This document shows, one piece after another, positions 29,490 through 63,974 of a stretch of 64,000 bases of DNA. A program made the translations under genes and the position numbers. Each line of letters begins with the position of its first letter. Within the stretch, counting starts at the first letter, position 1. The DNA lies in assembly GCF_055900595.2 (NCBI RefSeq), contig NZ_CM148325.1; one strand, 5' to 3'. The notes beneath the pieces were generated by a model that was given only the letters and a program-made list of their open reading frames with translations, was not told the DNA's origin and did no database searches.

Positions 29490-29512
29490 AAAAGGCAGCC
29501 ATCTGGCTGCCT
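29490..29512 (-). terminator. ptsG rho-independent terminator
   Basis: In ptsG sense, ggcagccagatggctgcc followed by a T-run, then the IS200 end. Confidence 0.7.
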
Positions 29513-29535
29513 TAGTCTCCCCAACGTCTTACGGA

Positions 29536-35606: not shown

Positions 35607-36320
35607 TAATAAATATCCTCCGGCATAGCCGGAGGTTTTTCAAATGCGCCTGTAAGGCTCTGTTACCAGCCGCGCCCTAACAGGCGCATACGATCTGACA
35701 TTTGCATTCAACTTCGTTACTTACGGCCCGTAAACGGGCTGCCCGGATATGGAATCGATAACTGCTCCCCCATTTTATCCTCTTCAAGCTGGTGCTTTAT
35801 GTAGTCCTGTATCTTCGCCGTGTTCTTACCCACCGTATCGACATAGTACCCTCGGCACCAGAACTCCCTGTTTCTGTATTTGAATTTCAAATCCCCAAAC
35901 TGCTCGTAAAGCATCAGACTGCTTTTCCCTTTCAGATATCCCATAAAGCCGGATACGCTCATTTTGGGTGGGATTTCCACAAGCATATGGATATGATCTG
36001 CGCAGCACTCTGCTTCCAGAATCCGTACGCTTTTCCACTCACACAGCTTTCTCAAAATACTGCCTATCGCCCTACGCTTCTCTCCGTAAAACGCCAGTCT
36101 TCGGTATTTCGGCGCAAAAACTATGTGATATTTACAGTTCCAGCGGGTGTGCGCTAAGCTCTTTTCGTCCCCCATTGGGACCCCCTTTTGATTTCTTGTT
36201 TGACACTTGCAGTTGCCAGACCGCAAGGTGTTTTAACAAATCAAAAGGGGTTTTAATAACTGGCTCAAAGCTGAAAGCTTTCCGGAACCCCCAGCCTAGC
36301 TGGGGGTTTTCTGTGCACAA
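35607..36320 (-). mobile_element. IS200-family insertion sequence, copy B (714 bp), same orientation as copy A
   Basis: Matches 28776-29489; flanks diverge at 35606/28775 and 36321/29490. Confidence 0.9.
35717..36175 (-). CDS. tnpA: IS200 transposase TnpA (Y1 HUH family), copy B
   Basis: Protein identical to copy A; same RBS-occluding stem-loop at 36176-36251. Confidence 0.92.
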   Translation of the reverse strand: MGDEKSLAHTRWNCKYHIVFAPKYRRLAFYGEKRRAIGSILRKLCEWKSVRILEAECCADHIHMLVEIPPKMSVSGFMGYLKGKSSLMLYEQFGDLKFKYRNREFWCRGYYVDTVGKNTAKIQDYIKHQLEEDKMGEQLSIPYPGSPFTGRK

Positions 36321-42953: not shown

Positions 42954-43538
42954 ATGCCTAAACTTATTTTAGCCTCCACCTCGCCCTGGCGTCGCGCTCT
43001 TCTGGAAAAACTGCAAATCTCTTTTGAATGTGCAGCACCCGAGGTCGACGAAACCCCACGCAGTGACGAATCACCGCGACAGTTGGTGCTTCGACTGGCG
43101 CAGGAAAAAGCGCAATCTCTGGCGTCACGTTATCCGGATCATTTAATTATTGGTTCAGACCAGGTATGTGTTCTTGATGGCGAAATCACCGGTAAACCGT
43201 TAACGGAAGAAAATGCCCGTCTGCAATTACGCAAAGCCAGCGGCAATATCGTCACCTTCTATACTGGCCTGGCGTTGTTTAATTCGGCGAATGGGCATCT
43301 GCAAACAGAAGTGGAGCCTTTTGACGTCCATTTCCGTCACCTGAGCGAGGCGGAGATTGATAATTACGTGCGTAAGGAGCATCCCCTGCACTGTGCGGGT
43401 AGCTTTAAGAGTGAAGGATTTGGCATTACGCTGTTTGAGCGTTTAGAAGGGCGTGACCCTAACACGCTGGTTGGTTTACCGCTAATCGCGCTGTGTCAGA
43501 TGTTACGTCGGGAAGGGAAAAATCCGCTGATGGGATAG
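42954..43538 (+). CDS. yceF: Maf-like nucleoside triphosphate pyrophosphatase YceF
   Basis: ORF 42915..43538; ATG at 42954 gives [20 protein letters not shown]... 194 aa (Maf family). Confidence 0.92.
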
Positions 43539-43544
43539 TTTTTT

Positions 43545-43625
43545 ACGCCGGATGCAGGTATGCCGCATCCGGCAATCGGTGCTGGCTGCCTGATGCGGCG
43601 TAAACGCCTTATCAGGCCTACCGCC
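43545..43625. repeat. REP/BIME palindromic units, yceF-rluC intergenic
   Basis: tacgccggatgcaggtatgccgcatccggc and gcctgatgcggcgtaaacgccttatcaggcctac. Confidence 0.65.
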
Positions 43626-43649
43626 CATTATCAGGTTTATATGCTTGTA

Positions 43650-44609
43650 TTAGCGCGCGTTACGCAGTTTCTGCAAACAACGCTTCAACCCCTCATCCAT
43701 CGGTGCTTCGATACGCATCACCTCACCGGTTCCCGGATGGGTAAACTTCAACGCTGCGGCGTGCAGGAACAGACGATTTAATCCCGTGCCTGCTTCAGTG
43801 AGCTGTCTGTCAAATTCACGGTCACCGTAGCGATCGTCAAAGGCAATCGGATGACCCGCATACTGTGTATGCACACGGATCTGATGAGTACGCCCAGTTA
43901 CCGGGCTACAACGCACCAGGGTGGCAAATGCATAGCGTTCTTCCACTTTAAAGCGTGTTTCCGACGGTTTACCTTCCTGACTCACACGCACGATACGTTC
44001 GCCACTTTGCAGAATATTTTTCAGCAACGGCGCTTGTACGCTCTTCACATGCGACTGCCACTGACCGCGCACCAGCGCCAGGTAATCTTTTTGCATCCCT
44101 TTTTCACGTAATTGCTCATGCAGAGAACGCAACGCCGAGCGTTTTTTCGCTACCAGCAACACACCGGAAGTGTCCCGGTCGAGACGATGTACCAGTTCAA
44201 GGAACCGCGCTTCCGGGCGCAACGCCCGTAAACCTTCGATAACGCCGAAGCTTAAACCACTGCCGCCATGTACTGCCGTACCGGAAGGTTTATTCAGCAC
44301 CAGGATATGCTCATCTTCATATAAGATGACGTCCGCCAGCGCCGCCACCTTTTGCAGATGTGGCGAAACCGCCTCCTCTTCACGTTCAGCAACGCGAACC
44401 GGTGGAATACGCACCTCATCACCTGCTTCGAGTTTATATTCAGGCTTAATACGTTTTTTGTTCACCCGCACTTCGCCTTTACGCAAAATACGGTAAATCA
44501 TACTTTTAGGTACGCCTTTCAATTGGGTACGCAAAAAGTTGTCGATACGTTGCCCCGCTTCGTCCGCGGTGATAGCAACAATTTTTACGGATGGAGTCTC
44601 TGTTTTCAT
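43650..44609 (-). CDS. rluC: 23S rRNA pseudouridine(955/2504/2580) synthase RluC
   Basis: 319 aa with S4 domain and RluA-family catalytic motif HRLDRDTSG. Confidence 0.95.
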   Translation of the reverse strand: MKTETPSVKIVAITADEAGQRIDNFLRTQLKGVPKSMIYRILRKGEVRVNKKRIKPEYKLEAGDEVRIPPVRVAEREEEAVSPHLQKVAALADVILYEDEHILVLNKPSGTAVHGGSGLSFGVIEGLRALRPEARFLELVHRLDRDTSGVLLVAKKRSALRSLHEQLREKGMQKDYLALVRGQWQSHVKSVQAPLLKNILQSGERIVRVSQEGKPSETRFKVEERYAFATLVRCSPVTGRTHQIRVHTQYAGHPIAFDDRYGDREFDRQLTEAGTGLNRLFLHAAALKFTHPGTGEVMRIEAPMDEGLKRCLQKLRNAR

Positions 44610-44820
44610 GGTGGGCGATTCTAATTAGCCAACAGGATTCGCGCCACTCATTTTTCTATGCTTATATTTAGTTTTGCACCTTATTACTTCACTACGTCAT
44701 CACTTTATTGATGGTTATTAAACCAATCACCATTAAGAAGTGAAAAAACTGTGAGTAAGCGGGTGATAAATGGTAAAAGTCATCTTGCTATAACAAGGCT
44801 TGCAGTGGAATAATGAGAAC

Positions 44821-45181
44821 GTTTCCGTGTCCATCCTTGTTAAAACAAGAAATTTTACGGAATAACCCATTTTGCCCGACCGATCATCCACGCAGCAATG
44901 GCGTAAGACGTATTGATCTTTCAGGCAGTTAGCGGGCTGCGGGTTGCAGTCCTTACCGGTAGATGGAAATATTTCTGGAGAGTAATACCCAGTCTGTTTC
45001 TTTGATAATTGCGCTGTTTTTCCGCATGAAAAACGGGCAACCGACACTCTGCGCCTCTTTGAGCTGACGATAACCGTGAGGTTGGCGACGCGACTAGACA
45101 CGAGGCCATCGGTTCACACCCGGAAAGGCGTTACTTTGCCCGCAGCTTAGTCGTCAATGTAAGAATAATGAGTAAGTTACG
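44821..45181 (+). promoter_or_regulatory. rne promoter and long 5' UTR (RNase E autoregulation region); boundaries approximate
   Basis: Established: the K-12 rne mRNA has a ~361-nt leader containing hairpins that mediate autoregulation; 5' boundary here is by analogy only. Confidence 0.5.
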
Positions 45182-48100
45182 ATGAAAAGAATGTTAATCA
45201 ACGCAACTCAGCAGGAAGAGTTGCGCGTTGCCCTTGTAGATGGGCAGCGTCTGTATGACCTGGATATCGAAAGTCCAGGGCACGAACAGAAAAAGGCAAA
45301 CATCTACAAAGGTAAAATCACCCGCATTGAACCGAGTCTGGAAGCTGCTTTTGTTGATTACGGCGCTGAACGTCACGGTTTCCTCCCACTTAAAGAAATT
45401 GCCCGCGAATATTTCCCTGCTAACTACAGTGCTCATGGCCGTCCCAACATTAAAGATGTGTTGCGTGAAGGTCAGGAAGTTATTGTTCAGATTGATAAAG
45501 AAGAGCGCGGTAACAAAGGCGCAGCACTGACCACCTTTATCAGCCTGGCAGGTAGCTATCTGGTTCTGATGCCGAACAACCCGCGCGCGGGTGGTATTTC
45601 TCGCCGTATTGAAGGCGACGACCGTACCGAATTAAAAGAAGCACTGGCAAGCCTTGAACTGCCGGAAGGCATGGGGCTTATCGTGCGCACCGCTGGCGTC
45701 GGCAAATCTGCTGAGGCGCTGCAATGGGATTTAAGCTTCCGCCTGAAACACTGGGAAGCTATTAAAAAAGCCGCTGAAAGCCGCCCTGCCCCGTTCCTGA
45801 TCCATCAGGAGAGCAACGTCATCGTTCGCGCATTCCGCGATTACTTACGTCAGGACATCGGCGAAATCCTTATCGATAACCCGAAAGTGCTCGAACTGGC
45901 GCGTCAGCATATCGCTGCATTAGGTCGCCCGGATTTCAGCAGCAAAATCAAGCTGTACACTGGTGAAATTCCGCTGTTCAGCCACTACCAGATCGAGTCG
46001 CAGATCGAGTCCGCCTTCCAGCGTGAAGTCCGTCTGCCGTCTGGTGGTTCTATTGTTATCGACAGCACTGAAGCGTTAACTGCCATTGATATCAACTCCG
46101 CACGCGCAACCCGCGGCGGCGATATCGAAGAAACCGCGTTTAACACCAACCTCGAAGCTGCCGATGAGATTGCTCGTCAGCTGCGCCTGCGTGACCTCGG
46201 CGGCCTGATTGTTATCGACTTCATTGACATGACGCCAGTCCGCCACCAGCGTGCGGTAGAAAACCGTCTGCGTGAAGCGGTGCGTCAGGACCGTGCACGT
46301 ATTCAAATCAGCCATATTTCTCGCTTTGGTCTGCTGGAAATGTCGCGTCAGCGCCTGAGTCCATCGCTGGGTGAGTCCAGCCATCACGTCTGCCCGCGCT
46401 GCTCTGGTACCGGCACCGTGCGTGACAACGAATCCCTGTCGCTCTCTATTCTGCGTCTGATTGAAGAAGAAGCGCTGAAAGAGAACACCCAGGAAGTCCA
46501 TGCCATTGTTCCTGTGCCAATCGCTTCTTACCTGCTGAACGAAAAACGCTCTGCGGTAAATGCCATTGAAACTCGTCAGGACGGCGTGCGCTGTGTGATT
46601 GTGCCAAACGATCAGATGGAAACCCCGCACTACCATGTGCTGCGCGTACGCAAAGGGGAAGAAACCCCAACGTTAAGCTACATGCTGCCGAAACTGCATG
46701 AAGAAGCGATGGCGCTGCCGTCTGAAGAAGAGTTCGCTGAACGTAAGCGTCCGGAACAGCCTGCGCTGGCAACCTTTGCCATGCCGGATGTGCCGCCAGC
46801 GCCAACCCCGGCTGAACCTGCCGCGCCTGTCGTAGCCCCAACGCCTAAAGCAACACCGGCAACACCAGCAGCTTCTGCACAACCGGGGCTGTTGAGTCGC
46901 TTCTTCAGCGCACTGAAAGCGCTTTTCAGCGGTGGTGAAGAAACCAAACCGACCGAGCAACCGGCACCGAAAACTGAAACGAAACCGGAACGTCAACAGG
47001 ACCGCCGTAAGCCACGTCAGAACAACCGTCGTGACCGTAATGAACGCCGCGACACACGTAGCGAACGTAATGAAGGCAGCGATAATCGCGAAGAAAACCG
47101 CCGTAATCGTCGCCAGGCACAGCAGCAGACTGCCGAGACACGTGAAAGCCGTCAGCAGGCTGAGGTAACGGAAAAAGCGCGTACCACCGACGAGCAGCAA
47201 GCGCCGCGTCGTGAACGTAGCCGCCGCCGTAATGATGATAAACGTCAGGCGCAACAAGAAGCGAAAGCGCTGAATGTTGAAGAGCAATCTGTTCAGGAAA
47301 CCGAACAGGAAGAACGTGTACGTCCGGTTCAGCCGCGTCGTAAACAGCGCCAGCTGAATCAGAAGGTGCGTTACGAGCAAAGCGTAGCCGAAGAAACGGT
47401 AGCCGCACCAGTGGTGGAAGAAACTGCCGCTGCCGAAACCATCGTTCAGGAAGTGCCTGCTCCGCGTACAGAACTGGCGAAAGTCCCGCTGCCAGTCGTA
47501 GCGCAAACTGCGCCGGAACAGCAGGAAGAGAACAATGCTGATAACCGTGATAACGGTGGCATGCCGCGTCGCTCTCGCCGCTCGCCTCGTCACCTGCGCG
47601 TAAGTGGTCAGCGTCGTCGTCGCTATCGTGACGAGCGTTACCCGACCCAGTCGCCAATGCCGTTAACCGTAGCGTGCGCGTCTCCGGAACTGGCCTCTGG
47701 CAAAGTCTGGATCCGCTATCCGATTGTACGTCCGCAAGATGTACAGGTTGAAGAGCAGCGCGAACAGGAAGAAGTACAAGTGCAACCGATGGTGACTGAG
47801 GTCCCTGTCGCCGCCGCTGTCGAACCGGTTGTTAGCGCACCGATTGTTGAAGAAGTGGCTGAAGTCGTAGAAGCCCCCGTTCAGGTTACCGAACCGCAAC
47901 CGGAAGTGGTTGAAACGACGCATCCTGAAGTGATTGCCGCCGCGGTAACTGAACAGCCGCAGGTGATTACCGAGTCTGATGTTGCCGTAGCCCAGGAAGT
48001 TGCAGAACACGCAGAACCGGTGGTTGAACCGCAGGAAGAGACGGCTGATATTGAAGAAGTTGCCGAAACTGCTGAGGTTGTGGTTGCTGAGCCTGAAGTT

Positions 48101-48367
48101 GTTGCTCAACCTGCCGCGCCAGTCGTCGCTGAAGTCGCAGCAGAAGTTGAAACGGTAGCTGCGGTTGAACCTGAGGTCACCGTTGAGCATAACCACGCTA
48201 CCGCGCCAATGACGCGTGCTCCGGCTCCGGCATATGTTCCGGAGGCACCGCGTCACAGTGACTGGCAGCGCCCTGCTTTTACCTTCGAAGGTAAAGGTGC
48301 CGCAGGTGGTCATACGGCAACGCATCATGCATCTGCCGCTCCTGCGCGTCCGCAACCTGTTGAGTAA
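45182..48367 (+). CDS. rne: Ribonuclease E
   Basis: 1061 aa; [30 protein letters not shown]... S1 and catalytic domain followed by Arg-rich and acidic/Pro-rich low-complexity scaffold. Confidence 0.97.
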
Positions 48368-48387
48368 TAATTAGCTCAAGTAATCAA

Positions 48388-48414
48388 GCCCTGGTAACTG
48401 CCAGGGCTTTTTTA
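48388..48414 (+). terminator. rne rho-independent terminator
   Basis: gccctgg-taactg-ccagggc followed by tttttt, 20 nt after the rne stop. Confidence 0.75.
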
Positions 48415-48473
48415 TTTCATCTTTGAATCAACATATTAAATGGCATCCTTGCTAACCAACAATACAAAATAGG

Positions 48474-48510
48474 CAAAAAAATGCCCGCCCCGGCGATCCC
48501 AGAGCGGGCA
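48474..48510 (-). terminator. Probable flgL terminator
   Basis: In flgL sense, gcccgc...gcgggc stem followed by a T-run (plus-strand aaaaaaa 48475-48481). Confidence 0.5.
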
Positions 48511-48551
48511 GACAAAACATACCCAGTTTCATGATATGTTTTAAAGCGAGC

Positions 48552-49505
48552 TTATTTGTTGAGCTGGAACAGCGACAATCCCTGCATATCTGTAAATGCT
48601 TTATACGATGCCTGCAATGCCGTTTGCTGCATGATGTAAGATGAAATAGTTGCATTCCAGTCCACATCAACCAGATCGCTCATCTGCTGCGTTTGCCCTA
48701 AAGCGCGATCGCTACCTAATGAATCCAGCGACTCCAGTTCGTTCAGCTGCGTGCCTAATTCCGCGCGAACGGTCAGCACATTGTTCAGCGAGTTTTTCAG
48801 TCCGCGGTTGGTTTTATCCAGTGCCGCAGCGGCGGTTTCTTTATCCGCTTCGCTTTCCGCGACCGGCGTTTTCAGGGCTGCGATGGCGCTATCCAGCATG
48901 GCAAAAAGATTGGTTTCAGAAGCGCTACCGTCTGGTTCCGCTACCGCGTTGCTGGTAATACTGTCGAAAATTTTGTCACCCGTGTGCCCTATCACCATCG
49001 AACGCGAAGCATCGACCTGTTGTTTAATACTTTCTGCTCCGCCAACATATTCGCCGTCTGCCTCACTAAACGGCGCAGTTTCTGTTTTATAACCGGCAAA
49101 AATGTAGCGCCCGTTACCATCCGTAGTGTTCGCCAGATTCAGCAACTGGTCACGAATACCCTGGATATCGGTTGCCAACGACGCCCGGTCATCATCACTC
49201 AAGGTGCCATTGCTGGCGTAGACAATTTTTTCCTGAGCATTCTGGATAGCAGTGGTGACCTGGCTAAGCACACTCTCTTCCAGTGACACTTTTTGAGTGG
49301 CGAAAGTACGCGCCAGCGTGTACTGGCTGTTTTGCGCCTGTGCCTGGGAGAGAACAACAGCTTGTGATGCAGCAATGGGATCATCTGAAGGGTTAACGAC
49401 TCGCTTACCCGTCGACATCTGTTCGCCGTACTTCATCCATTCGGCCTGAGAATTGGTGATGCCACGCATGTTTTGCTGGTACATCATCTGGGTACTGAAA
49501 CGCAT
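48552..49505 (-). CDS. flgL: Flagellar hook-filament junction protein 3 (HAP3)
   Basis: 317 aa, MRFSTQMMYQQNMRGITNSQAEW... Confidence 0.95.
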   Translation of the reverse strand: MRFSTQMMYQQNMRGITNSQAEWMKYGEQMSTGKRVVNPSDDPIAASQAVVLSQAQAQNSQYTLARTFATQKVSLEESVLSQVTTAIQNAQEKIVYASNGTLSDDDRASLATDIQGIRDQLLNLANTTDGNGRYIFAGYKTETAPFSEADGEYVGGAESIKQQVDASRSMVIGHTGDKIFDSITSNAVAEPDGSASETNLFAMLDSAIAALKTPVAESEADKETAAAALDKTNRGLKNSLNNVLTVRAELGTQLNELESLDSLGSDRALGQTQQMSDLVDVDWNATISSYIMQQTALQASYKAFTDMQGLSLFQLNK

Positions 49506-49516
49506 TTTATCTCCCC

Positions 49517-51160
49517 TTAGCGAATGTTAATCAGCGCATCAAAAATCGCGTTTGCCGTCTGCAGAACCTGCGCATTCGCGAGGTAATACTGCTGAAAACG
49601 TTGCAGATTTCCGTACTCCTCGTCGAGATTGACACCAGAAATCGACTGCTGCTGATTGGAAAGCTGCGTCACCACATTACCTTGCGTGGTGCTACTGGTT
49701 TTCAACGTCGCGGTTTTATTACCGATATCACTCACTAACGAGGCATAAGCGTCGTTAAAGGATTTCGCACCGCCCACCGTTTTACTGTTACTTTGCAGAT
49801 CCAGCAGGGCCTGCCCGTTGCGGTTGTCGCTATCACCCGCATCTTCTTCGCTCGCCATGGCGATTTTCGCTTCGTCAGTGATTAATACATCCATGTTGAC
49901 GATGGCGTCACTTACCGGTTTCAGCGTGAAGCTGTCGTTAGCGGCAGGCGTGCCTGTAAACGTCAACTCCAGACCATCAAATACAACTTTACCGTTGTTA
50001 TCCGGCGTCACCGTAAAAGTGGTGTTGCTGGCAAGGCGGGTGACCTGCCACTGATTATTGTCGAACGAAATTTTGTAATCTGTCGCCAGTACCGCGGAGG
50101 CATCAGTTACCGTTGCACCGATCGAAACGTCACCTTTGTTTTTCGTGTTTTGCAGAACCGCGGGCTTACCGATAGCAAAGAAATCTTCACCGGCATCGCC
50201 GTTAGCATCAAATCCGGCTTTGTGTTGGGTGTTGAAAGCCTCGGCAAATGCCAGCGCCAGTTGTCCGAGCGTATTACGCGTCTGGTCCAGATCCTGAGAA
50301 CGGAATGTCAGAATGCCGCCCAGCGACCCGGTATTCAGTAATTTCTCCGGGATCTCAATATTGCCTGCCGTCCCATCAACATAAGCGACAGTCGTACGAG
50401 AAGGGTCGGCGCTGGAAGGAACTGCCGCAAGTTGCCGCGCCGTACTTCCCTGAACCAGTGAGTAGCCATTGGCCATCGTGATGTTATAAGTGCCACCATC
50501 CTGAACGCTGACTTCTACGCCAACAATCTGGTTTAATTCGCTCACCAGTTGATCGCGTTGATCCAGCAGATTGTTAGGTGACGCCCCTGCCCCCACGCCT
50601 GTCAGGCGGGAGATCTGATCGTTCAGGCTGGCGATTTGTTTAGCGTAATTGTTGATCTGATCAACGCTGGCACCTATCGCGATATTGACCTGTTTGTCCT
50701 GGTCGCGCAGATATTGATCGGTGGTTTTAAACTGATTCACCAACCCTTCTGATTTCCCAATCAGCGCCTGGCGTGCTGCCGGGTCTTCCGCGTTACTTAC
50801 CAGCGTTTGCAGGCTTGTGAAGAAATCCTGCATCTGTGTTGCCAGCGAAGAGGTACTGGTGGAGAGCATATTGTCGATTTTCGACATCTGCTCATAGCGG
50901 GCAGTCAGGCCGCTACTTTGCGTCTGCGCCGCACGTAACTGGTTGGTAATAAAAGCATCATACTCACGCTGCACACCGGAAACGTAGACACCATTGCCAA
51001 CCCAGCCACCCGCGCCCAACGTGCTGTTGGCCTGCGCCATAATAGTGGTTTGGCGGGTATATCCGGCAACGTTATAGCTGGAGATATTATTACTTGCCGT
51101 ATTTAACGCCGCCTGAGCCGCGTTCAGTCCGCTCATGGCGTTATTGATCAAGCTGGACAT
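49517..51160 (-). CDS. flgK: Flagellar hook-filament junction protein 1 (HAP1)
   Basis: 547 aa, MSSLINNAMSGLNAAQAALNTASNNISSYN... Confidence 0.95.
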   Translation of the reverse strand: MSSLINNAMSGLNAAQAALNTASNNISSYNVAGYTRQTTIMAQANSTLGAGGWVGNGVYVSGVQREYDAFITNQLRAAQTQSSGLTARYEQMSKIDNMLSTSTSSLATQMQDFFTSLQTLVSNAEDPAARQALIGKSEGLVNQFKTTDQYLRDQDKQVNIAIGASVDQINNYAKQIASLNDQISRLTGVGAGASPNNLLDQRDQLVSELNQIVGVEVSVQDGGTYNITMANGYSLVQGSTARQLAAVPSSADPSRTTVAYVDGTAGNIEIPEKLLNTGSLGGILTFRSQDLDQTRNTLGQLALAFAEAFNTQHKAGFDANGDAGEDFFAIGKPAVLQNTKNKGDVSIGATVTDASAVLATDYKISFDNNQWQVTRLASNTTFTVTPDNNGKVVFDGLELTFTGTPAANDSFTLKPVSDAIVNMDVLITDEAKIAMASEEDAGDSDNRNGQALLDLQSNSKTVGGAKSFNDAYASLVSDIGNKTATLKTSSTTQGNVVTQLSNQQQSISGVNLDEEYGNLQRFQQYYLANAQVLQTANAIFDALINIR

Positions 51161-51193
51161 GGAGGTTCCTTATAAGCCTTCAATTACAGAGTA

Positions 51194-51220
51194 TTATCGG
51201 CAGCGACACGCCGGACTTGA
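51194..51220 (-). promoter_or_regulatory. Candidate sigma-28 (FliA) class-3 promoter for flgKL
   Basis: In flgK sense, TCAA-N15-GCCGATAA, 34 nt upstream of the flgK ATG; consensus is TAAA-N15-GCCGATAA. Confidence 0.5.
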
Positions 51221-51225
51221 GTTAT

Positions 51226-52167
51226 TCAGAACAGATTATCAATGTTCATGCTGTAGGTTTTGCTCACCTTGTCGCTTATCGATTTCATCTGCTGAATCAT
51301 GTTGGTGAGTTTTCGGGCATAGTGAGGATCGGTAGCATAGCCCGCGTCCTGTAGGGCCTGCGCCCCCTGCTCCGCACTCGCGGCGGTCGTCACGGCAGCG
51401 TAGCGCGGGTTACGTGTTAATAGCCCAACGTAATCCGACAATGCTTCCAGATACGAGCTGTAGACCCGAAACTTCGCTTTTACTTTCTTCGCTTCGCCAT
51501 TTTCATATTCAGTCGTGGTGATTTCAGTGACTGGCCCTTTCCAGTTGCCAGAGGCTTTGACGCCAAACAGGTTATAGCTCGGCTCGCCGTTTTCACGGCG
51601 GATTTGCCGTTGCCCCCAGCCAGACTCCAGCGCCGCCTGAGCGAGGATCAAATGGTGTGGCACACCACTTTGCTGGCTTGCCAGTTGGGCGGGCAGTGAG
51701 AGTTGCGCGAGGAATGCTTTACTGTCACCTGGCAGCGAATCATCGTAGTTGCGTGGTACGGCCTTTTGCACCAGCTGCGAAAGCGTCTGATTTTGATAAC
51801 GCATCACGGTTTCGAGCGGGAATTTCATCGGTGCTGCTGGCGTGGACTCATCTGGCAACGGTTGTTCTGGCGTCATCTGTTTAACCATCATCTCTGCCAG
51901 CCCCAGGCCTTTGCCCGCCGTCATCTGTTGGGCAATCTGCTGGTCATACATACTGGTGTAGAGGCGAGTGTGCTCGCTGCTGAACAGGCCATCTTTTGGC
52001 AAAGCGTCGCGCATGCTTTTCAGCATCATCTGCACGAACATCCCTTCTACCTGACGGGCCACTGGACGGATATTTGCCGCTGGATCTTCGCCCGCTTTCG
52101 CCTTCAGTTCGTTGAGCGATTGCGCATCCCAGGCCGCACTCGCCAGTAGTTTGCTGTCGCTGATCAT
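51226..52167 (-). CDS. flgJ: Flagellar rod assembly protein / peptidoglycan hydrolase FlgJ
   Basis: ORF to 52197; ATG at 52167 gives [18 protein letters not shown]... 313 aa; start overlaps the flgI stop by 1 nt. Confidence 0.93.
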   Translation of the reverse strand: MISDSKLLASAAWDAQSLNELKAKAGEDPAANIRPVARQVEGMFVQMMLKSMRDALPKDGLFSSEHTRLYTSMYDQQIAQQMTAGKGLGLAEMMVKQMTPEQPLPDESTPAAPMKFPLETVMRYQNQTLSQLVQKAVPRNYDDSLPGDSKAFLAQLSLPAQLASQQSGVPHHLILAQAALESGWGQRQIRRENGEPSYNLFGVKASGNWKGPVTEITTTEYENGEAKKVKAKFRVYSSYLEALSDYVGLLTRNPRYAAVTTAASAEQGAQALQDAGYATDPHYARKLTNMIQQMKSISDKVSKTYSMNIDNLF

Positions 52168-53264
52168 CAGATAATTTCCAGTTTTGCCCGCAGACATCCC
52201 GCACTTTGCATTGATTGCAAAATAGACATCAGATCCATCGGCGTAGCACCCAGCGCATTGAGCGCGCGCACCACGTTATTGAGGCTGGCACTGGAGCGTA
52301 CGCTTTGCAGCGAACCGCCGCTCTGGCGTAAGTCGATCTGTGTTTGTGGAGTAACCACAGTCTGCCCACCACCAAACGGTGTATCTGGCTGGCTGACATT
52401 GGCCTGGCGATTAACTGTTACTGAGAGATTCCCCTGCGCTACCGCGCAGCTGTCGAGGGTCACTTCGCGATTCATCACCACCGAACCAGTGCGCGAGTTA
52501 ATCACTACTTTAGCGTCCTGCGGGGTGACATTAACCTGCATATTCTGGATATCGGCAAGGAAACGGACCTGGGAACTGTTGCCACTCGGTACGCGCACCT
52601 GAATAGTCCGCGCATCTAACGCGGTGGCGCTGCCATATCCACGCACGCGGTTGATGGTGTCAGCGATTTGCTGCGCCATACTGAAATCTTCGTCGTTAAG
52701 TTGCAAATTAAGGGTATTCCCGACGCCAAATTGGCTGGGCAATTCACGTTCAATAACCGCACCATTGGTGATCCGTCCACCGTTCAGTTGGTTCACCTGA
52801 ACACTGCTACCGCCAGCGGAGGCCCCTGCGCCGCCAACCAGAATATTGCCCTGTGCCAGCGCATACACCTGACTGTCAACGCCCTTAAGCGGTGTCATCA
52901 ATAACGTACCGCCACGCAGACTTTTGGCATTTCCCATGGAAGAAACCACCACGTCAATGGTTTGCCCCTGACGTCCAAACGGTGGAAGTGACGCCGTCAC
53001 CATTACCGCAGCGACGTTTTTTAGCTGCATATTAGTGCCCGTCGGAACGGTAATTCCCAGCTGTGAGAGCATGTTATTAAGCGTTTGTGTGGTAAACGGC
53101 GTCTGAGTTGTCTGGTCACCGGTGCCATCCAGCCCCACCACCAGGCCATAGCCAATCAGTGAGTTTTGCCTTACCCCCTGAACACTGGTGAGATCGCGAA
53201 TACGCTCAGCCTGAGCTGCCGTGATAACCAGTAGAAGAATTAATGCAGAGAGAAATTTAATCAC
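52167..53264 (-). CDS. flgI: Flagellar P-ring protein
   Basis: ORF from GTG 53267; second GTG at 53264 gives (M)[18 protein letters not shown]... 365 aa with signal peptide. Confidence 0.94.
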
Positions 53265-53275
53265 CACAGCCTCAC

Positions 53276-53974
53276 TTACATTGGCGACAGGTTAAGGAAG
53301 AAACGCTGCAACCAGCCCATATTTTGCGCTTCGTTAATGTAGCCATTGCCTACGTATTCAATGCGCGCATCCGCCACCTGAGTAGACGGTACGGTATTAC
53401 TGCCGCTGATGGTGCGAGGATTAACTACACCAGAGAAGCGAATAAATTCGGTACCCTGATTAATGGCGATCTGTTTTTCACCCACCACATGCAGGTTGCC
53501 GTTGACCAGTACCTGGTCAACCGTCACCGTCAACGTGCCGCTAAAGGTATTGCTGGCATTGGCCCCACCTTTTCCGTTGAACGTGTTGCCACCAGAGGCT
53601 TCGACATCGGCACGAGCGTTACCAAACAGCCCCTGCAAATAGCGCGGCACAGTATCAAAGCCAAAATTAGTTTTACCGTCACGGCTGGCATTCGCAGAGG
53701 AGCTTTTGCTGGCGCTGACGTTCTCCTGCAACACGATGGTCAGCGTATCGCCAATATTGCGTGGTCGACGATCTTCAAACAGCGGTTGATAGCCATAGTT
53801 AATCGGCTGAGCAGACTGGAAAATAGAACCGTTGGCGACGGGCGTCGGACCGGGAACCGGTTGTGCACTGGTCGCCCCCTGTACCAGCGGCGTGGAGGGT
53901 ATCCAGGCGCAGCCGGTTAGTGAAAGCACCAACAAGCTGGAAATGGCATAAGTATGCGCAGCGTTTTTTTGCAT
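53276..53974 (-). CDS. flgH: Flagellar L-ring lipoprotein
   Basis: ORF to 53989; ATG at 53974 gives [22 protein letters not shown] (lipobox) 232 aa. Confidence 0.94.
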
Positions 53975-54026
53975 GGCTATCATCTTCAAAAATCAGTAAA
54001 CCGGTGAATCTGCCACCGGTTATGCC

Positions 54027-54827
<801 letters not shown>

Positions 54828-54852
54828 TTATTGACAAAATGCATATGTCTTC

Positions 54853-54888
<36 letters not shown>

Positions 54889-54980
54889 AAGAGCTCGCGA
54901 AATCAATAAATTGCGATTGCCCCCATAGACCCGATAAACTTGCGCATCGGGCAACTTATTCTTGTCATGTATCCGTTCAA

Positions 54981-55736
54981 TTAACTCATCGACAGCAGTT
55001 GGTTGGCACGGCCTGCGTTATCATCGACGCTGCTGATCACCTTCATCTGCATTTCAAAACGCCGCGCGCTGGCAATCATGTCGCTCATTGCCGCAACGGC
55101 ATTGACGTTACTGCCTTCCAGAACCCCCGACATCACACGTAAGGTTGGATCTGCCTGCAGTACCGGCCCACGCGTAGCCTGGCTTTCTGCGCTTAAACGA
55201 AAAATGCCGTCGTCACCGCGCTGCACTTCGCTGCCCGTGGCTTTCACCAGCTTCAGACGCCCCACTGGCGCGACAGTATTTGCCGGATCGCCAGAATTCA
55301 GCGCCGAGATTGTGCCATCGGCAGCAACAGTGATTTCCGCCCCTTCCGGCACAGCAATTGGCCCCGCCTCGCCGATCACCGGATGCCCCTGAATTGTCAG
55401 TTGCCCGGTGGGATCAACCTGAATGCTGCCATTACGCGTATATCCTTCGCTGCCGTCAGCGGTCTGCACGGCCAGCCAGCCGTCCTGCTGCAACGCGACG
55501 TCCAGCGGGCGCGAGGTGTAATCCATCTTACCGGGCGTCATGTCAGCACCCGGTGTTGACGCCGTAACCAGCGTGCGCGTGGGTAGTGAAAGCCCTTCCA
55601 CCGGCACTGCACGCAAGGCGTTTAACTGTGCGCGAAAACCGGGCGTAGAGGCATTGGCCAGATTACTGGCGGTCACCGCCTGTTGATTCAGCGTCTGGCT
55701 GGCTGCCCCCATCGCGGTATAAATTGCGTGATCCAT
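54981..55736 (-). CDS. flgF: Flagellar proximal rod protein
   Basis: 251 aa, MDHAIYTAMGAASQTLNQQAVTASNLANAST... Confidence 0.95.
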   Translation of the reverse strand: MDHAIYTAMGAASQTLNQQAVTASNLANASTPGFRAQLNALRAVPVEGLSLPTRTLVTASTPGADMTPGKMDYTSRPLDVALQQDGWLAVQTADGSEGYTRNGSIQVDPTGQLTIQGHPVIGEAGPIAVPEGAEITVAADGTISALNSGDPANTVAPVGRLKLVKATGSEVQRGDDGIFRLSAESQATRGPVLQADPTLRVMSGVLEGSNVNAVAAMSDMIASARRFEMQMKVISSVDDNAGRANQLLSMS

Positions 55737-55755
55737 TGAGCTATCCCGTCAGCGA

Positions 55756-56961
55756 TTAGCGTAAGTTAACCAGCGTGTTGAGGATCTGGTCCTGGGTTTT
55801 GATGGTCTGGGCGTTAGACTGATAGTTACGCTGGGCAACGATCATATTGACCAGTTCTTTGCTGAGATCGACATTGGACGCTTCCAGCGCACCGTTGGTC
55901 AGGGTGCCAAAGTTGCCCGTCCCGGCTGTCCCCAACAGCGCCACGCCAGAAGATTGCGTCGCAGACCAGACGTTGTCGCCTTCGGATGCCAGACCTTCGT
56001 TGTTGGCAAAGTTCGCCAGTACAATCTGCCCCAGCAGTTGGGTTTGTTCGTTGGAATAGTTGCCGACAACCGTACCGTCATCATTGATTTGATAACTCAC
56101 CAGATCGCCCGGTTTATAGCCGTTCTGGGTGGTTGCCACAATGTTGTTAGCACCGGTATTTTGCTGCATGGAGTTGAGGAAGCTCAGGCTAAACGTGGCG
56201 GGATCTGCGCCGTTAATTGCGCCGGTGGTAATATCCTTTGTTGGATCTGAGGTCAGAACGCCATTGGCATTAAACACCAGCGTCGTTGCAGGGTTAGCTG
56301 TGCCTTTTGGATCACTGCTATCCAGGGTGTAAACATCCCAGTTATTATCCCCGGTCTTCACAAAATAAACGCTCATATCATGAGCATTACCCTGACTATC
56401 GAAAACAGTCACCGAACCTTTTTTGTTATAGCTATCCGCATTGCTGGCATCGAATCCTTTAACAGAGGGAAGCGGATCACTGGAATTCAGGTTGATCTGC
56501 ATCGACGCCGTGGTGGTAGTTTTCGCTGCCATCAGGGTATTCGGGATCGAAATATTGGTCGGATTCGCCCCTTGTTGAATAGTCGGCGGCGTACCGGTTG
56601 CCGGATACCCCGTCAGCTGTAATCCTTGCATATTCACCAGGTTACGATTTTCATCGAGCTTAAATTGTCCATTACGGCTGTAAAAAACCGAACCATTGCT
56701 GTCTACCAGACGGAAAAAACCATTCTGGCTGATAGCAACGTCCAGACCTCGCCCGGTGTTGGTGGTCGTGCCATCGGTAAAGTCCTGAGTGATACCGGCA
56801 ACTTTTACCCCCAGTCCCACTTTCGAACCGGCAAACATATCGGCAAAAGAGGCCGTGCCTGATTTAAAGCCGTAGGTGGCGGAGTTGGCGATATTGTTGC
56901 CAATAACATCGAGGTTGGTGGCGGCAGCGTTTAATCCGCTAACCGCTTGAGAAAAGGCCAT
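55756..56961 (-). CDS. flgE: Flagellar hook protein
   Basis: 401-aa ORF, MAFSQAVSGLNAAATNLDVIGNNIANSATYGFK... Confidence 0.95.
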   Translation of the reverse strand: MAFSQAVSGLNAAATNLDVIGNNIANSATYGFKSGTASFADMFAGSKVGLGVKVAGITQDFTDGTTTNTGRGLDVAISQNGFFRLVDSNGSVFYSRNGQFKLDENRNLVNMQGLQLTGYPATGTPPTIQQGANPTNISIPNTLMAAKTTTTASMQINLNSSDPLPSVKGFDASNADSYNKKGSVTVFDSQGNAHDMSVYFVKTGDNNWDVYTLDSSDPKGTANPATTLVFNANGVLTSDPTKDITTGAINGADPATFSLSFLNSMQQNTGANNIVATTQNGYKPGDLVSYQINDDGTVVGNYSNEQTQLLGQIVLANFANNEGLASEGDNVWSATQSSGVALLGTAGTGNFGTLTNGALEASNVDLSKELVNMIVAQRNYQSNAQTIKTQDQILNTLVNLR

Positions 56962-56986
56962 GACTGACTCCTGAAATTTGAGGGCT

Positions 56987-57682
56987 TTAAATTATCTGCC
57001 GTACTTCGTCGAGGGTGGTGGTGCCGTAAGTGCCGAGATCCAGCGTATTACCGTTGTTGCCGCGGATCACCCCCTGCACCAGAGCAAACTGCAGCGGCTG
57101 GGCAACCAGTTGTGTACCACCGTTACTGGCGCTAATCGCTACATTGTAAGAACCGTTCGGCGCAGTGCTGCCGTCAGTCAACGTACCGTCCCAGGTGAAA
57201 CTGTGGACTCCGGCAGTCAGTTCACCGATATCAATGGTACGGACAACCGCGCCGTTTTTATCGGTGATGGTGGCCGTAACTTTGTCTGCCGCCTGCTGCA
57301 ACTCAACACCAAACGGCGTGGTCGTGGTCACAGCCCCTTCCTCACTGCCGGTTCCGGCAAGAACTGTGGTGCCGGGGATCATCACACCGTGACCGATCAG
57401 GTTACTGGCCTGTAGCGACTGGCTGTTATCAATCTGTCCGGAAATAGATCCGAGTGTAGTATTGAGTTTTTCTATCCCGCTGACCGTGCTGATTTGCGCC
57501 AATTGCGACGTCAGCTCGTTGTTTTCCATTGGATTGGTCGGGTCCTGGTTTTTCAGCTGCGCCACCAGCAAAGTCAGAAAACTGCTTTGTAAATCTGCGG
57601 CGTTGCTACCCGTGAGCGAGCTACTGCTGGTGGTGCTAACGCCGGTATTTGTCGGATCGGTGGTGGTTACCGCAATGGACAT
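56987..57682 (-). CDS. flgD: Flagellar hook capping/scaffold protein
   Basis: 231 aa, MSIAVTTTDPTNTGVSTTSSSSLTGSNAADLQ... Confidence 0.95.
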   Translation of the reverse strand: MSIAVTTTDPTNTGVSTTSSSSLTGSNAADLQSSFLTLLVAQLKNQDPTNPMENNELTSQLAQISTVSGIEKLNTTLGSISGQIDNSQSLQASNLIGHGVMIPGTTVLAGTGSEEGAVTTTTPFGVELQQAADKVTATITDKNGAVVRTIDIGELTAGVHSFTWDGTLTDGSTAPNGSYNVAISASNGGTQLVAQPLQFALVQGVIRGNNGNTLDLGTYGTTTLDEVRQII

Positions 57683-57693
57683 AGATTTCTCCT

Positions 57694-58098
57694 TTATTGA
57701 CCAAGCGTAAGGGTTTTCAGCATCATGCTTTTCACCGTGTTGAGCACTTCAACATTGGCCTGATAGCTGCGTGATGCTGACATGGTGTTAACCATCTCGC
57801 CGACAACATCAACGTTTGGCATTTTCACGTAGCCCTTTGCATCCGCCAGCGGATTACCCGGTTCATAAACCAGTTTGTCCGGAGCCTGACTTTCTATAAC
57901 ATCGGCAACCTTTACGCCGCCTGTCGCAGCGCCTGGCGCAGCGTTCACCTGGAATACCACCTGTTTTGCCCGATATGGCTGTCCATCGGGACCGGTCACG
58001 CTATCAGCATTCGCCAGATTACTGGCCGCCACATTCAGGCGCTGGGACTGGGCAGTTAACGCCGACCCGGCGATATCAAAAATGTTCAGCAGTGCCAT
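57694..58098 (-). CDS. flgC: Flagellar proximal rod protein
   Basis: 134 aa, [33 protein letters not shown]... Confidence 0.96.
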
Positions 58099-58101
58099 CC
58101 G

Positions 58102-58518
58102 TTAATTTCCGCTCTGTAAAACGTTCATCATGCCTTTGATTTGCCCGCTCAACGCGCTAAGGCTCATCTGGTATTGCAGGCTGTTATCGGCAAACTGAGT
58201 GCGTTCGCGATCCATATCGACGGTATTACCGTCCAGCGAAGGCTGGTCCGGAATACGGTATTGCAGTTCTGCGGTAGGAGGCGTCAGCGCCTGCGCCGGA
58301 ATGTGTTGCGTTGAGGTCATCGTCAGCGCAACCATGCTGGTTTCATCCCGTCCACGCTGCATGACCTTTTTAAGTTCACTGGCAAAATCGATATCGCGTG
58401 CCTGATAACCAGGGGTATCGGCATTGGCGATGTTTGCTGCCAGCACTTCCTGACGCTGGGCGCGCAGATTGAGCGCCTCTTGTTGAAAACGTAAGGCGGC
58501 GTCGAGCTTATCGAGCAT
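58102..58518 (-). CDS. flgB: Flagellar proximal rod protein
   Basis: 138 aa, [42 protein letters not shown]... Confidence 0.96.
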
Positions 58519-58672
58519 ATCTCCTCCGCAAGTATCAAAATTCTGCCATCAGCTTAAATGCCTTTACGCGCGCGTTATCGGCGGAATAAACGCAAAATGG
58601 GTCGCTATTTATGCCGTTGATGGTCATTGCGTACAGGTACAATTCACGTTGTAGAAATGGCTGGGAGCGAAA
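58519..58672. promoter_or_regulatory. Divergent flgB / flgA class-2 flagellar promoter region (FlhD4C2-dependent in K-12)
   Basis: 154-bp intergenic region between divergent flgB and flgA operons; assignment by established regulon knowledge, individual boxes not mapped. Confidence 0.5.
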
Positions 58673-59332
58673 ATGCTGACAATAAAACGTAGCGTGGCGA
58701 TCATTGCGATACTGTTCAGTCCGTTAAGTACGGCGAGCAATCTCACATCGCAGTTACAAACCTTTTTTAGCGCCCAGCTCGCGGGAGTAAGTGATGAGGT
58801 TCGTGTTTCTATTCGTACATCGCCCCATCTACTTCCGCCGTGCGAGCAACCACTGCTTTCGATAAGCAATAATTCCCGCCTGTGGGGAAATGTGAATGTG
58901 CTGGCACGCTGCGGTAACGACAAACGATATTTGCAAGTCAATGTACAGGCCACAGGAAATTATGTGGTTGCCGCGATGCCCATTGTGCGGGGAGGAAAGC
59001 TGGAAGCTGGCAATGTAAAACTGAAACGCGGCAGGCTGGATACCTTGCCGCCGCGTACTGTGTTGGATATCAATCAACTTATTGATGCCGTTAGCCTGCG
59101 CGATCTATCACCCGAACAACCTATCCAATTAACCCAGTTGCGCCAGGCCTGGCGTGTAAAAGCGGGACAACGCGTCAACGTGATCGCCAGTGGTGATGGG
59201 TTTAGCGCCAACGCTGAAGGTCAGGCGCTGAACAATGCTGCCGTCGCACAGAATGCGCGGGTGCGCATGGTATCGGGACAGGTGGTCAGCGGCGTTGTCG
59301 ATGCAGATGGGAATATTCTTATAAACCTGTAA
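58673..59332 (+). CDS. flgA: Flagellar P-ring assembly chaperone
   Basis: 219 aa with signal peptide, MLTIKRSVAIIAILFSPLSTASNLTSQ... Confidence 0.94.
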   Translation: MLTIKRSVAIIAILFSPLSTASNLTSQLQTFFSAQLAGVSDEVRVSIRTSPHLLPPCEQPLLSISNNSRLWGNVNVLARCGNDKRYLQVNVQATGNYVVAAMPIVRGGKLEAGNVKLKRGRLDTLPPRTVLDINQLIDAVSLRDLSPEQPIQLTQLRQAWRVKAGQRVNVIASGDGFSANAEGQALNNAAVAQNARVRMVSGQVVSGVVDADGNILINL

Positions 59333-59337
59333 CCTGT

Positions 59338-59364
59338 TAAAGATTACCCGACCCATGCCGATAA
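59338..59364 (+). promoter_or_regulatory. Sigma-28 (FliA) class-3 promoter for flgMN
   Basis: Exact consensus TAAA-N15-GCCGATAA: TAAA 59338-59341, spacer 15 nt, GCCGATAA 59357-59364; 44 nt upstream of the flgM ATG. Confidence 0.8.
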
Positions 59365-59407
59365 ATAAGCAACACATGATAAAAGCGCCCTCAATGAGGA
59401 ATAAACC

Positions 59408-59701
59408 ATGAGTATTGACCGCACTTCACCTCTGAAGCCCGTAAGCACCGTTCAACCGCGTGAAACCACTGACGCGCCGGTAACGAATACCCGGGCGGCA
59501 AAAACAACCGCCGCCACCAGCACCAGTGTGACGTTAAGCGACGCGCAAGCAAAACTAATGCAACCCGGCAGCAGTGATATCAATCTTGAACGTGTCGAAG
59601 CGTTAAAACTGGCGATTCGTAACGGTGAACTAAAAATGGACACCGGCAAAATTGCCGATGCGCTAATCAACGAAGCGCAGCAAGACTTGCAGAGTAACTG
59701 A
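59408..59701 (+). CDS. flgM: Anti-sigma-28 factor
   Basis: 97 aa, [38 protein letters not shown]... Confidence 0.96.
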
Positions 59702-59705
59702 TCGT

Positions 59706-60122
59706 ATGACGCGTCTTGCAGAGATCCTCGACCAGATGTCCGCAGTGCTTAACGATCTCAAAACGGTAATGGATCAAGAGCAGCAACATCTCTCAATGGG
59801 GCAGATCAACGGCAGCCAGTTGCAATGGATTACAGAACAAAAAAGCTCACTGCTGGCGACGTTGGATTACCTCGAACAGTTACGCAGAAAAGAACCCAAT
59901 GCAGAAAATAGCGTTGATATTAGTCAACGTTGGCAGGAAATTACGGTGCAAACTCAGCAACTACGTCAAATGAATCAACATAATGGCTGGTTACTGGAAG
60001 GACAGATTGAGCGCAATCAACAGGCGCTGGAAATGTTAAAACCGCATCAGGAACCGACGCTGTACGGGGCGAACGGTCAGACATCAATACCCCATCGCGG
60101 CAGTAAAAAGATTTCGATCTGA
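59706..60122 (+). CDS. flgN: Flagellar export chaperone for FlgK/FlgL
   Basis: 138 aa, MTRLAEILDQMSAVLNDLKTVMDQEQQHLS... Confidence 0.95.
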   Translation: MTRLAEILDQMSAVLNDLKTVMDQEQQHLSMGQINGSQLQWITEQKSSLLATLDYLEQLRRKEPNAENSVDISQRWQEITVQTQQLRQMNQHNGWLLEGQIERNQQALEMLKPHQEPTLYGANGQTSIPHRGSKKISI

Positions 60123-60161
60123 AGATTATCTCCGGCCTGCAGTGCAGGCCGGAATGCATTG

Positions 60162-61784
<1,623 letters not shown>

Positions 61785-61806
61785 CTACCGCCAGATGTTA
61801 CAGGGT

Positions 61807-62730: not shown

Positions 62731-62731
62731 T

Positions 62732-63974
<1,243 letters not shown>

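Follow-up and report, generated by a model that had tools for sequence, protein, structure and literature searches.

The rne locus and its compositionally biased scaffold half

The window, by which we mean the whole 64,000-nt stretch of DNA analysed here, carries rne on the plus strand at 45182..48367, identified by ORF listing, Pfam and the RefSeq annotation of every sampled match as the gene for ribonuclease E (RNase E; 1,061 aa). It is flanked by rluC upstream and by flgL and flgK downstream, in the K-12 order. The regulatory element of the rne 5′ UTR (Rfam rne5, RF00040) lies at 44821..45157 on the same strand (260 bits, with a gathering threshold of 180; E = 1.1e-81), and a consensus scan marked a terminator-like hairpin and T-run just 3′ of the stop codon (48386..48409, plus strand; a 10-pair stem, then TTTTATTT). 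The protein matched three Pfam families over their curated cut-offs: S1 (PF00575; residues 36–117, E = 9.6e-13), RNase_E_G (PF10150; residues 121–391, E = 1.1e-98) and RNase_E_G_Thio, the small (thioredoxin-like) domain (PF20833; residues 403–488, E = 1.9e-31). The Zn-link motif CPxCxGxG, placed between the catalytic and small domains in PMC4435900, can be read in the translation as CPRCSGTG at residues 404–411.

The catalytic N-terminal half (codons 1–529; 45182..46768, plus strand) is 100% identical in amino acid sequence to that of K-12 and has a column identity of 0.95 across 80 Enterobacterales sequences. The region that follows, codons 530–1061 (46769..48364, plus strand), corresponds to the known scaffold portion of E. 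coli RNase E, which is non-catalytic and is here called the CTD; its composition is biased and its column identity across species is 0.50. With residue coordinates from PMC4435900, we located six plus-strand microdomains in the CTD, each at its K-12 residue numbers: the membrane-targeting sequence (MTS; codons 565–582, 46874..46927; column identity 0.61), the R/Q/N/E/D-rich first Arg-rich RNA-binding segment (AR1; codons 604–644, 46991..47113; 0.62), the RhlB helicase-binding site (HBS; codons 719–731, 47336..47374; 0.80), the second Arg-rich segment (AR2; codons 796–814, 47567..47623; 1.00 in the 80 sequences), the enolase-binding site (EBS; codons 834–850, 47681..47731; 0.78) and the PNPase-binding site (codons 1021–1061, 48242..48364), which also matched PNPase_C (PF12111; residues 1022–1058, E = 4.6e-17). 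AR2, HBS and EBS thus stand out as islands of conservation against linkers at 0.41, and among seven E. coli the HBS had no variable residue and the EBS was unchanged. An acidic, A/E/P/V-rich low-complexity segment occupies approximately codons 861–1000 (47762..48181, plus strand), with a 40-residue entropy of 2.26–2.97 bits and a gapped alignment of 0.23–0.45 column identity.

The locus closely resembles rne of E. coli K-12 (b1084) in protein length, Pfam architecture, rluC–rne–flgL order and possession of the rne5 element. It differs by a synonymous divergence of approximately 0.18 and by 24 amino acid substitutions, which are confined to the CTD and fall chiefly in its linkers. The catalytic half carries 62 synonymous differences from K-12 (dS 0.185, dN 0, dN/dS 0.00), and dN/dS in the CTD is 0.12. 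The allele itself is rare: of 5,426 complete E. coli genomes, only that of strain N96 matches it at 99.9% identity.

The initial annotation described the C-terminal half as strongly low-complexity, and composition measurements bore this out. Shannon entropy was 3.70 bits for residues 530–1061 compared with 4.05 bits for residues 1–529, the lowest 40-residue window reached 2.26 bits (residues 961–1000), and seven residue types (A, E, V, P, R, Q and T) made up 77% of the CTD. Leucine fell from 54 residues in the catalytic half to 11 in the CTD, which has 20 serines. We set aside DNA-level repeats in favour of compositional bias, as Tandem Repeats Finder returned two marginal 9-nt arrays only (scores 33–37) and repeated 11-mers were mildly enriched (9 versus 2.3 ± 2.0 after codon shuffling). 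The CTD, probably disordered, as PMC4435900 describes the C-terminal region, is a biased polypeptide in which short conserved motifs alternate with fast-evolving R/N/Q-rich and A/E/P/V-rich linkers.

The RNase E tail is nearly constant in length within E. coli

The same region had been said to vary in length between strains, a view that found no support within E. coli when the C-terminal regions were aligned. In 60 genomes taken evenly down the identity ranking, 58 had an identical 1,599-nt span; the exceptions, HS4 (−12 nt) and GN4738 (−609 nt), lay at its lower end. Of the 5,425 matching E. coli genomes, 5,424 cover 80% or more of the CTD. The HS4 deletion lies in the A/E/P/V-rich segment at 47762..48181, where the GN4738 deletion also has its distal end. 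Ten genomes with 80–90% CTD identity were considered as indel variants and set aside, as flgK and rluC also have outliers, ten in number; the ten genomes most likely represent divergent lineages.

Between species the picture is different. RNase E ranges from 1,040 to 1,251 aa, and of the 5,969 residues that the interspecies alignment inserts with respect to the window protein, 5,967 fall after residue 529, with codons 861–1000 or so a main site of insertion. Between its motifs, the CTD shows fast substitution, its dN/dS exceeding that of the catalytic half, and indels across species, with near-invariant length within E. coli.

Long antisense ORFs opposite rne follow from sense codon content

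ORF listing returned, exactly as in the initial annotation, three minus-strand ORFs of 230–306 aa opposite the CTD. Two lie in the codon-aligned antisense frame, as306 (46673..47593; GTG start, 306 aa) and as230 (47663..48355; TTG start, 230 aa), and the third, as243 (46926..47657; TTG start, 243 aa), occupies an offset frame. A 186-aa shadow ORF (46076..46636, minus strand) lies in the codon-aligned frame opposite the catalytic half, and a 131-aa antisense ORF (46446..46841, minus strand) is found further upstream in rne. Other genes in the same window also face long antisense ORFs, of 454 aa for ptsG and 240 aa for a 1,169-aa ORF at 14075..17584. We consider it highly probable (approximately 95%) that all three ORFs opposite the CTD represent non-coding shadow ORFs produced by the codon content of the sense strand, as243 being specific to this allele.

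In the codon-aligned antisense frame, stops can occur only opposite TTA, CTA or TCA in the sense strand, and the frame stays open where these codons are rare; the CTD has 1, 0 and 0 of them, one such codon in 532. Its 11 leucines and 20 serines are encoded almost wholly by other codons, which leaves a single codon-aligned stop, and this lone TTA, at Leu828, divides the frame into as306 and as230. Permutation of CTD codons still gave a longest antisense ORF of 379 ± 80 aa, so composition alone predicts both codon-aligned ORFs. When codons were resampled synonymously with the gene's own usage, the probability of being open was 0.20–0.33 for as306 and 0.88–0.91 for as230.

In the as243 frame, a stop arises only when a sense codon with TT, TC or CT as its last two letters precedes one whose first letter is A. 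Between residues 582 and 826, R, Q, E, N, D and K are abundant, and only 7.8% of codons there end in TT, TC or CT, so that the number of stops expected over 244 codons falls from approximately 13 at the scaled catalytic-half rate to approximately 4 locally. Local codon permutation predicted 3.9 stops, with none seen (P(0) = 0.011), and synonymous resampling gave P(open) = 0.016–0.03. Only as243 thus modestly exceeds the expectation from composition, and the weight of its 1–3% chance of openness is lessened by its having been chosen after the fact and by the stop that interrupts it in typical E. coli. We rejected as a signal the apparent rarity of having three ORFs of 200 aa or more opposite the CTD (whole-CTD permutation P = 0.0005); on our reading, the codon-aligned frame is counted twice there, its one stop being mid-region, and as243 is the sole excess ORF once the double counting is removed.

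The initial annotation had put the ORFs down to low-complexity composition. Indeed, antisense stops are scarcer opposite the CTD than opposite the catalytic half, whichever of the three frames is taken (1/19/9 versus 7/24/24), and the drop in leucine together with an approximately threefold cut in expected offset-frame stops along the hydrophilic stretch points the same way. That low complexity or repetitiveness of the CTD is both necessary and sufficient is nevertheless doubtful. The catalytic half, of normal complexity, yields the 186-aa ORF here and, in 34 of 79 Enterobacterales, faces antisense ORFs of 200 aa or more, ptsG faces a longer one in the same window, and the DNA lacks substantial tandem repeats. 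Across species, moreover, the CTD uses TTA, CTA and TCA above the level predicted from the catalytic half: with the codon choice of the catalytic half as baseline, the CTDs of the 79 Enterobacterales should hold 234 codon-aligned antisense stops but hold 390 (Wilcoxon p = 2e-9), a pattern contrary to any avoidance of stops. In 51 of these 79 CTDs the codon-aligned antisense frame held an ORF of 200 aa or longer, and both stop counts and the longest open antisense stretches varied widely between species. Low complexity is a contributor to the antisense ORFs, and as their sole cause it is refuted.

The antisense frames lack the marks of overlapping genes

A different reading of the same ORFs is that at least one is a genuine overlapping gene within rne, the best candidate being the codon-aligned frame. 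In this window as230 is terminated opposite the TTA codon of Leu828. Typical E. coli encode this residue with TTG, and the terminating stop was missing in 5/5 of them, so the frame continues, reaching 564 codons in K-12. Such lengths, the chance of openness calculated for as243 and the overlapping antisense genes claimed in E. coli all speak for a gene, as does the as230 span, which was open in 7/7 full-length E. coli alleles examined. However, codon usage alone predicts the as230 frame to be open with P = 0.88, and the other two ORFs did not stay open across related strains. Five of five typical E. coli (K-12, O157:H7, ST95-32, TKEC21-17 and 1943) have a stop at as243 codon 101, arising from a synonymous CTG/CTC change at sense Leu725, and two of the five (ST95-32 and TKEC21-17) have internal stops in as306. 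Natural alleles carry antisense stops, through CTC at Leu725 and TTA at Leu828, and the excess of antisense stops across the 79 species likewise argues against a gene.

Selection gave a similar result. Nei–Gojobori comparisons of the window with K-12, O157 and ST95 yielded antisense dN/dS values of 0.99–1.18 for as306, 2.9–3.6 for as243 and 0.42–0.99 for as230, compared with 0.08–0.25 in the sense frame of the corresponding stretches. Across these three strains, purifying selection on the antisense frames was not evident. The values of 0.42–0.50 for as230 against O157 and ST95 would favour a gene, but a dN/dS below 1 can be explained by overlap with the constrained sense frame.

Codon-usage log-likelihood ratios (LLRs, in bits per codon) were +0.51 for the CTD sense frame, close to the mean of +0.50 for real genes, and −0.50, −0.53 and −0.29 for as306, as230 and as243, respectively, with −0.33 for the 186-aa ORF opposite the catalytic half. 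Set against the model for its own antisense frame, the codon usage of each of the three ORFs is indistinguishable from that of antisense frames of real genes. Their products had no Pfam match at E ≤ 0.1, no Shine–Dalgarno motif was evident by eye in the 25 nt upstream of their starts, and a consensus scan for sigma-70-type promoters found no such site on either strand between 46400 and 48700. A literature search returned no antisense gene embedded in rne, and the accessible text and supplements of two E. coli screens for antisense overlapping genes do not name rne. We regard an overlapping gene as extremely improbable.

Antisense transcription is pervasive in E. coli, and the strand opposite the 3′ half of rne might instead give rise to a non-coding antisense RNA that modulates rne, with the ORFs incidental to it. 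Indirect support comes from terminator-like hairpins, of which the two strands hold 10, against 3.3 ± 2.1 in shuffled sequence, several of them on the minus strand. We do not take this minus-strand excess as a signal, as an A-rich sense strand (AT skew up to +0.45) is expected to produce such hits through the T-runs that face it. Given also the negative promoter scan on both strands, and with rne5 as the only Rfam family found in 44000–49000, an antisense RNA is very unlikely. There is likewise only the slimmest chance that the codon-aligned antisense frame is transcribed at a low level and translated into a young, fast-evolving, F/R/L-rich protein; such a product would escape conservation tests because the sense frame dominates selection.

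Together, frame arithmetic, codon usage, dN/dS, stops in strains and species, and the promoter and Pfam negatives agree that the antisense ORFs are artefacts, as the initial annotation held, and we infer that no antisense product is made. The shadow ORFs opposite rne are real but ordinary, an already known phenomenon. They resemble shadow ORFs in general in that two of the three lie in the codon-aligned frame, and in their absence of homologs, antisense-type codon usage and lack of conservation. They differ in that the Leu/Ser-poor, hydrophilic CTD strengthens the effect, with three ORFs of at least 230 aa, one of them in an offset frame, overlapping 1.6 kb. Like ano and laoB of E. coli O157:H7 and two long genes of Pseudomonas aeruginosa, they are long ORFs antisense within an annotated gene. 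As reported, however, those cases rest on RNA-seq and ribosome profiling, with purifying selection as a further basis for the Pseudomonas genes, whereas the ORFs opposite rne, known here from their sequence, fail tests of selection and conservation.

Broken assemblies convert shadow ORFs into miscalls

The region had also been called a common site of annotation errors. This holds only in part: 90/90 sampled RefSeq rows give rne alone, and the miscalls occur in broken assemblies. In a large protein collection, 11 clusters comprising approximately 300 sequences matched the antisense ORF; the query, as306, also reaches as230 calls, the two frames being fused in typical E. coli. In all seven inspected loci with an antisense ORF called, rne was interrupted, either by a scaffold gap of 100 N or by frameshifts, the setting being gapped metagenome scaffolds and frameshifted assemblies. 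When a gap or frameshift interrupts rne, gene calling defaults to the shadow ORF. Five ENA metagenome scaffolds from different samples, with similarly formatted names, break directly after rne codon 942.

These results imply no new biology, and their value is mainly in quality control: ORF length alone, here 230–560 codons, is no evidence for a gene. Frame arithmetic explains long antisense ORFs opposite Leu/Ser-poor, hydrophilic, compositionally biased coding regions. The analysis also corrects a plausible assumption about RNase E, the tail of which is almost length-invariant in more than 5,400 E. coli and indel-rich between genera.

The rne locus and the composition of its scaffold half

The rne gene (45182..48367, plus strand) encodes a protein of 1,061 aa with S1, RNase E/G, thioredoxin-like and PNPase-binding Pfam domains, and lies in the order rluC, rne, flgL, flgK, as in E. 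coli K-12, with rluC placed at 43650..44609 on the minus strand in the ORF listing. Its rne5 leader (Rfam) maps to 44821-45157. The non-catalytic scaffold half of the product (CTD, residues 530-1061) has the biased composition claimed in the initial annotation: its entropy is 3.70 bits, compared with 4.05 bits for the catalytic half (residues 1-529), falling to 2.26 bits in the lowest of its forty-residue windows, and A, E, V, P, R, Q and T together make up 77% of its residues. At the DNA level this is compositional bias and not repetition, because Tandem Repeats Finder yields just two marginal 9-nt arrays in the CTD.

A strong minus-strand terminator hairpin lies at 48510-48482. In K-12 the small RNA FlgO is annotated at the 3′ end of flgL, adjoining the rne terminator, which corresponds to window ~48470..48552; Rfam at its gathering threshold reported no family over that interval.

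The antisense ORFs opposite rne do not behave as genes

Three minus-strand ORFs, named here by their length in amino acids, are present exactly where they had been claimed: as306 (46673..47593; 306 aa), as243 (46926..47657; 243 aa) and as230 (47663..48355; 230 aa). Both as306 and as230 are in the codon-aligned antisense frame, in register with the sense codons, and as243 is in an offset antisense frame. That they are artefacts, as the initial annotation held, is supported by codon usage, dN/dS, stops in strains and species, and the lack of Pfam matches and promoter-like sites. Under a codon model trained on the 47 other ORFs of the window, the sense frame of the CTD scored +0.51 bits per codon (real-gene mean +0.50). 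The antisense ORFs did not score as gene-like: as306 (−0.50) and as230 (−0.53) were at the level of the antisense frames of real genes, and as243 scored −0.29 against its own-frame model. In comparisons with K-12, O157:H7 and ST95, dN/dS measured in the sense frame over the same spans was 0.08-0.25, and the antisense values were 0.99-1.18 for as306, 2.9-3.6 for as243 and 0.42-0.99 for as230.

Conservation of the ORFs, checked in five typical E. coli (K-12, O157:H7, ST95-32, TKEC21-17 and 1943), did not hold: as243 is interrupted at codon 101 in all five, where sense Leu725 differs synonymously (CTG/CTC), and as306 is interrupted in two. The as230 stop is absent from all five, and therefore in K-12 the codon-aligned antisense frame is open for 564 codons. 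Opposite the CTDs of 79 Enterobacterales species, a codon-aligned open stretch of at least 200 aa occurs in 51, with lengths and stop counts that vary widely. Codon choice as in the catalytic half predicts 234 codon-aligned antisense stops for these CTDs, and 390 are present (p = 2e-9), an excess that is the reverse of stop avoidance. None of the three products matched a Pfam family, a scan of both strands across 46400-48700 returned no sigma-70-like promoter, and no Shine-Dalgarno motif was evident upstream of the three starts. The two E. coli antisense-gene screens compared do not name rne in their text or in the supplements examined. The antisense ORFs opposite rne are a known kind of thing.

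A further ORF of 122 aa (44733..45101, minus strand), 98% identical to K-12 YceQ (b1085, annotated as a DUF2655 protein), overlaps the rne5 5′ UTR element (44821-45157) on the opposite strand. It had no match in current Pfam and may be a further questionable ORF opposite functional rne sequence.

Why the antisense frames stay open

The biased composition had been proposed as the cause of these ORFs, and it does lower the number of antisense stops. Placing stops by sense codon phase, we found that a codon-aligned antisense stop requires an opposing sense TTA, CTA or TCA. With 11 Leu and 20 Ser, the CTD uses TTA once and CTA and TCA not at all, and its codon-aligned antisense frame therefore has one stop in 532 codons; this sole stop, opposite the TTA of Leu828, divides as230 from as306. 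Permutation of the CTD codons leaves a longest antisense ORF of 379 ± 80 aa, and in synonymous resamplings with the gene's own codon usage as230 remains open in 88-91% and as306 in 20-33%.

For as243, a stop arises only where a sense codon with TT, TC or CT at its end precedes one that begins with A. Residues 582-826 are rich in R, Q, E, N, D and K, and only 7.8% of their codons have such endings (catalytic half, 21.6%), which leaves about 3.9 expected stops in this frame, where the composition of the catalytic half would predict about 13. This allele has none (P = 0.011; P = 0.016-0.03 under synonymous resampling), so that the openness of as243 is a mild chance event added to the composition effect.

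Low complexity is nonetheless not required for long antisense ORFs, because the catalytic half and ptsG have them too. The catalytic half carries one of 186 aa in the window and one of at least 200 aa in 34 of the 79 species. Opposite ptsG (29536..30969, minus strand), a gene of ordinary complexity, a 454-aa ORF (29137..30501, plus strand) without a Pfam match spans about two-thirds of the gene and exceeds every rne antisense ORF in length.

Inspected miscalls lie in broken assemblies

The initial annotation also described the region as a common site of annotation errors. Miscalls do exist, but RefSeq annotation beneath the match gave rne alone in all 90 sampled rows. Querying a large protein collection with as306 returned 11 clusters, with about 300 sequences in all, and we inspected seven antisense-ORF loci, five on ENA metagenome scaffolds and two in NCBI assemblies. 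All five scaffolds, from different samples, have a 100-N gap directly after rne codon 942 and list no full-length rne call, a 416-aa antisense ORF being called in its place; on one, only a 134-aa fragment is called on the rne strand, and one resumes past the gap at residue 926, a 17-codon overlap. Assembly thus appears to fail systematically at this point of the A/E/P/V-rich segment. In the two NCBI assemblies rne is heavily frameshifted. Antisense miscalls thus do occur, but they go together with broken assemblies. Two RefSeq entries named 'hypothetical protein, partial [Pseudomonas aeruginosa]' (WP_241365695.1 and WP_343171840.1), lie on contigs 289-345 nt long and group with the antisense-rne ORF of E. 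coli at ≥90% identity; the probable explanation is contamination by E. coli DNA, subsequently mis-annotated.

A rare rne allele in a divergent segment

Relative to typical E. coli, the window's rne allele is ~4% divergent over its catalytic half and ~5.3% over the CTD, and direct comparison with six typical alleles gave ~94-96% identity. All 62 catalytic-half differences from K-12 are synonymous (dS about 0.18); the CTD has 24 amino-acid changes relative to typical E. coli. Among 5,426 complete genomes, only E. coli N96, from a Tibetan pig, reaches 99.9% identity to this rne. More than 1,000 genomes match ptsG, which lies 15 kb from rne, at 99-100% identity. Left of ~43.5 kb the window differs from K-12 by ~1-2%; the figure climbs to ~3-6% at rluC and remains high across the flg cluster, the divergent segment extending over about 43500..63500. 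The 500-nt block most divergent from K-12 (56000..56499; 88.6% identity) falls inside flgE by coordinate mapping. This step suggests a mosaic, probably of recombinational origin, or alternatively an imported segment. Elsewhere, between fabF and pabC, an insertion of ~700 nt relative to K-12 (about 35614..36318) contains an IS200-like Y1 transposase ORF (35717..36226, minus strand; PF01797, E = 1e-36).

Length variation of the scaffold half

The CTD had been said to vary in length between strains. Such variation is found between genera but hardly among E. coli: at least 80% of the CTD is covered in 5,424 of 5,425 matching complete E. coli genomes, and of 60 genomes sampled at regular intervals along the match ranking, 58 have an identical 1,599-nt span. 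The two exceptions, HS4 and GN4738, rank lowest. In HS4, 12 nt (codons 980-984) are deleted in frame within the A/E/P/V-rich segment. The clinical isolate GN4738 has a 609-nt in-frame deletion (codons 742-945; window 47405..48016), yielding an 858-aa protein that has lost the Arg-rich RNA-binding segment AR2 and the enolase-binding site. K-12 has two copies of ACCGGTGGTTGAA flanking the segment deleted in GN4738, and the window retains only the distal copy, at 48016. HS4 also carries, between rne and flgL, a DUF1778 and GNAT gene pair that is in neither the window nor K-12 and whose pairing suggests a toxin–antitoxin module.

Between species, the rne protein ranges from 1,040 to 1,251 aa, and of the 5,969 residues that the alignment shows as insertions against the window's protein, 5,967 lie beyond residue 529, mainly in the R/N/Q-rich and A/E/P/V-rich segments. 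Conservation in the alignment is 100% for AR2 and about 80% for the RhlB and enolase sites, a pattern of conservation and insertion that agrees with the microdomain picture of RNase E (PMC4435900).
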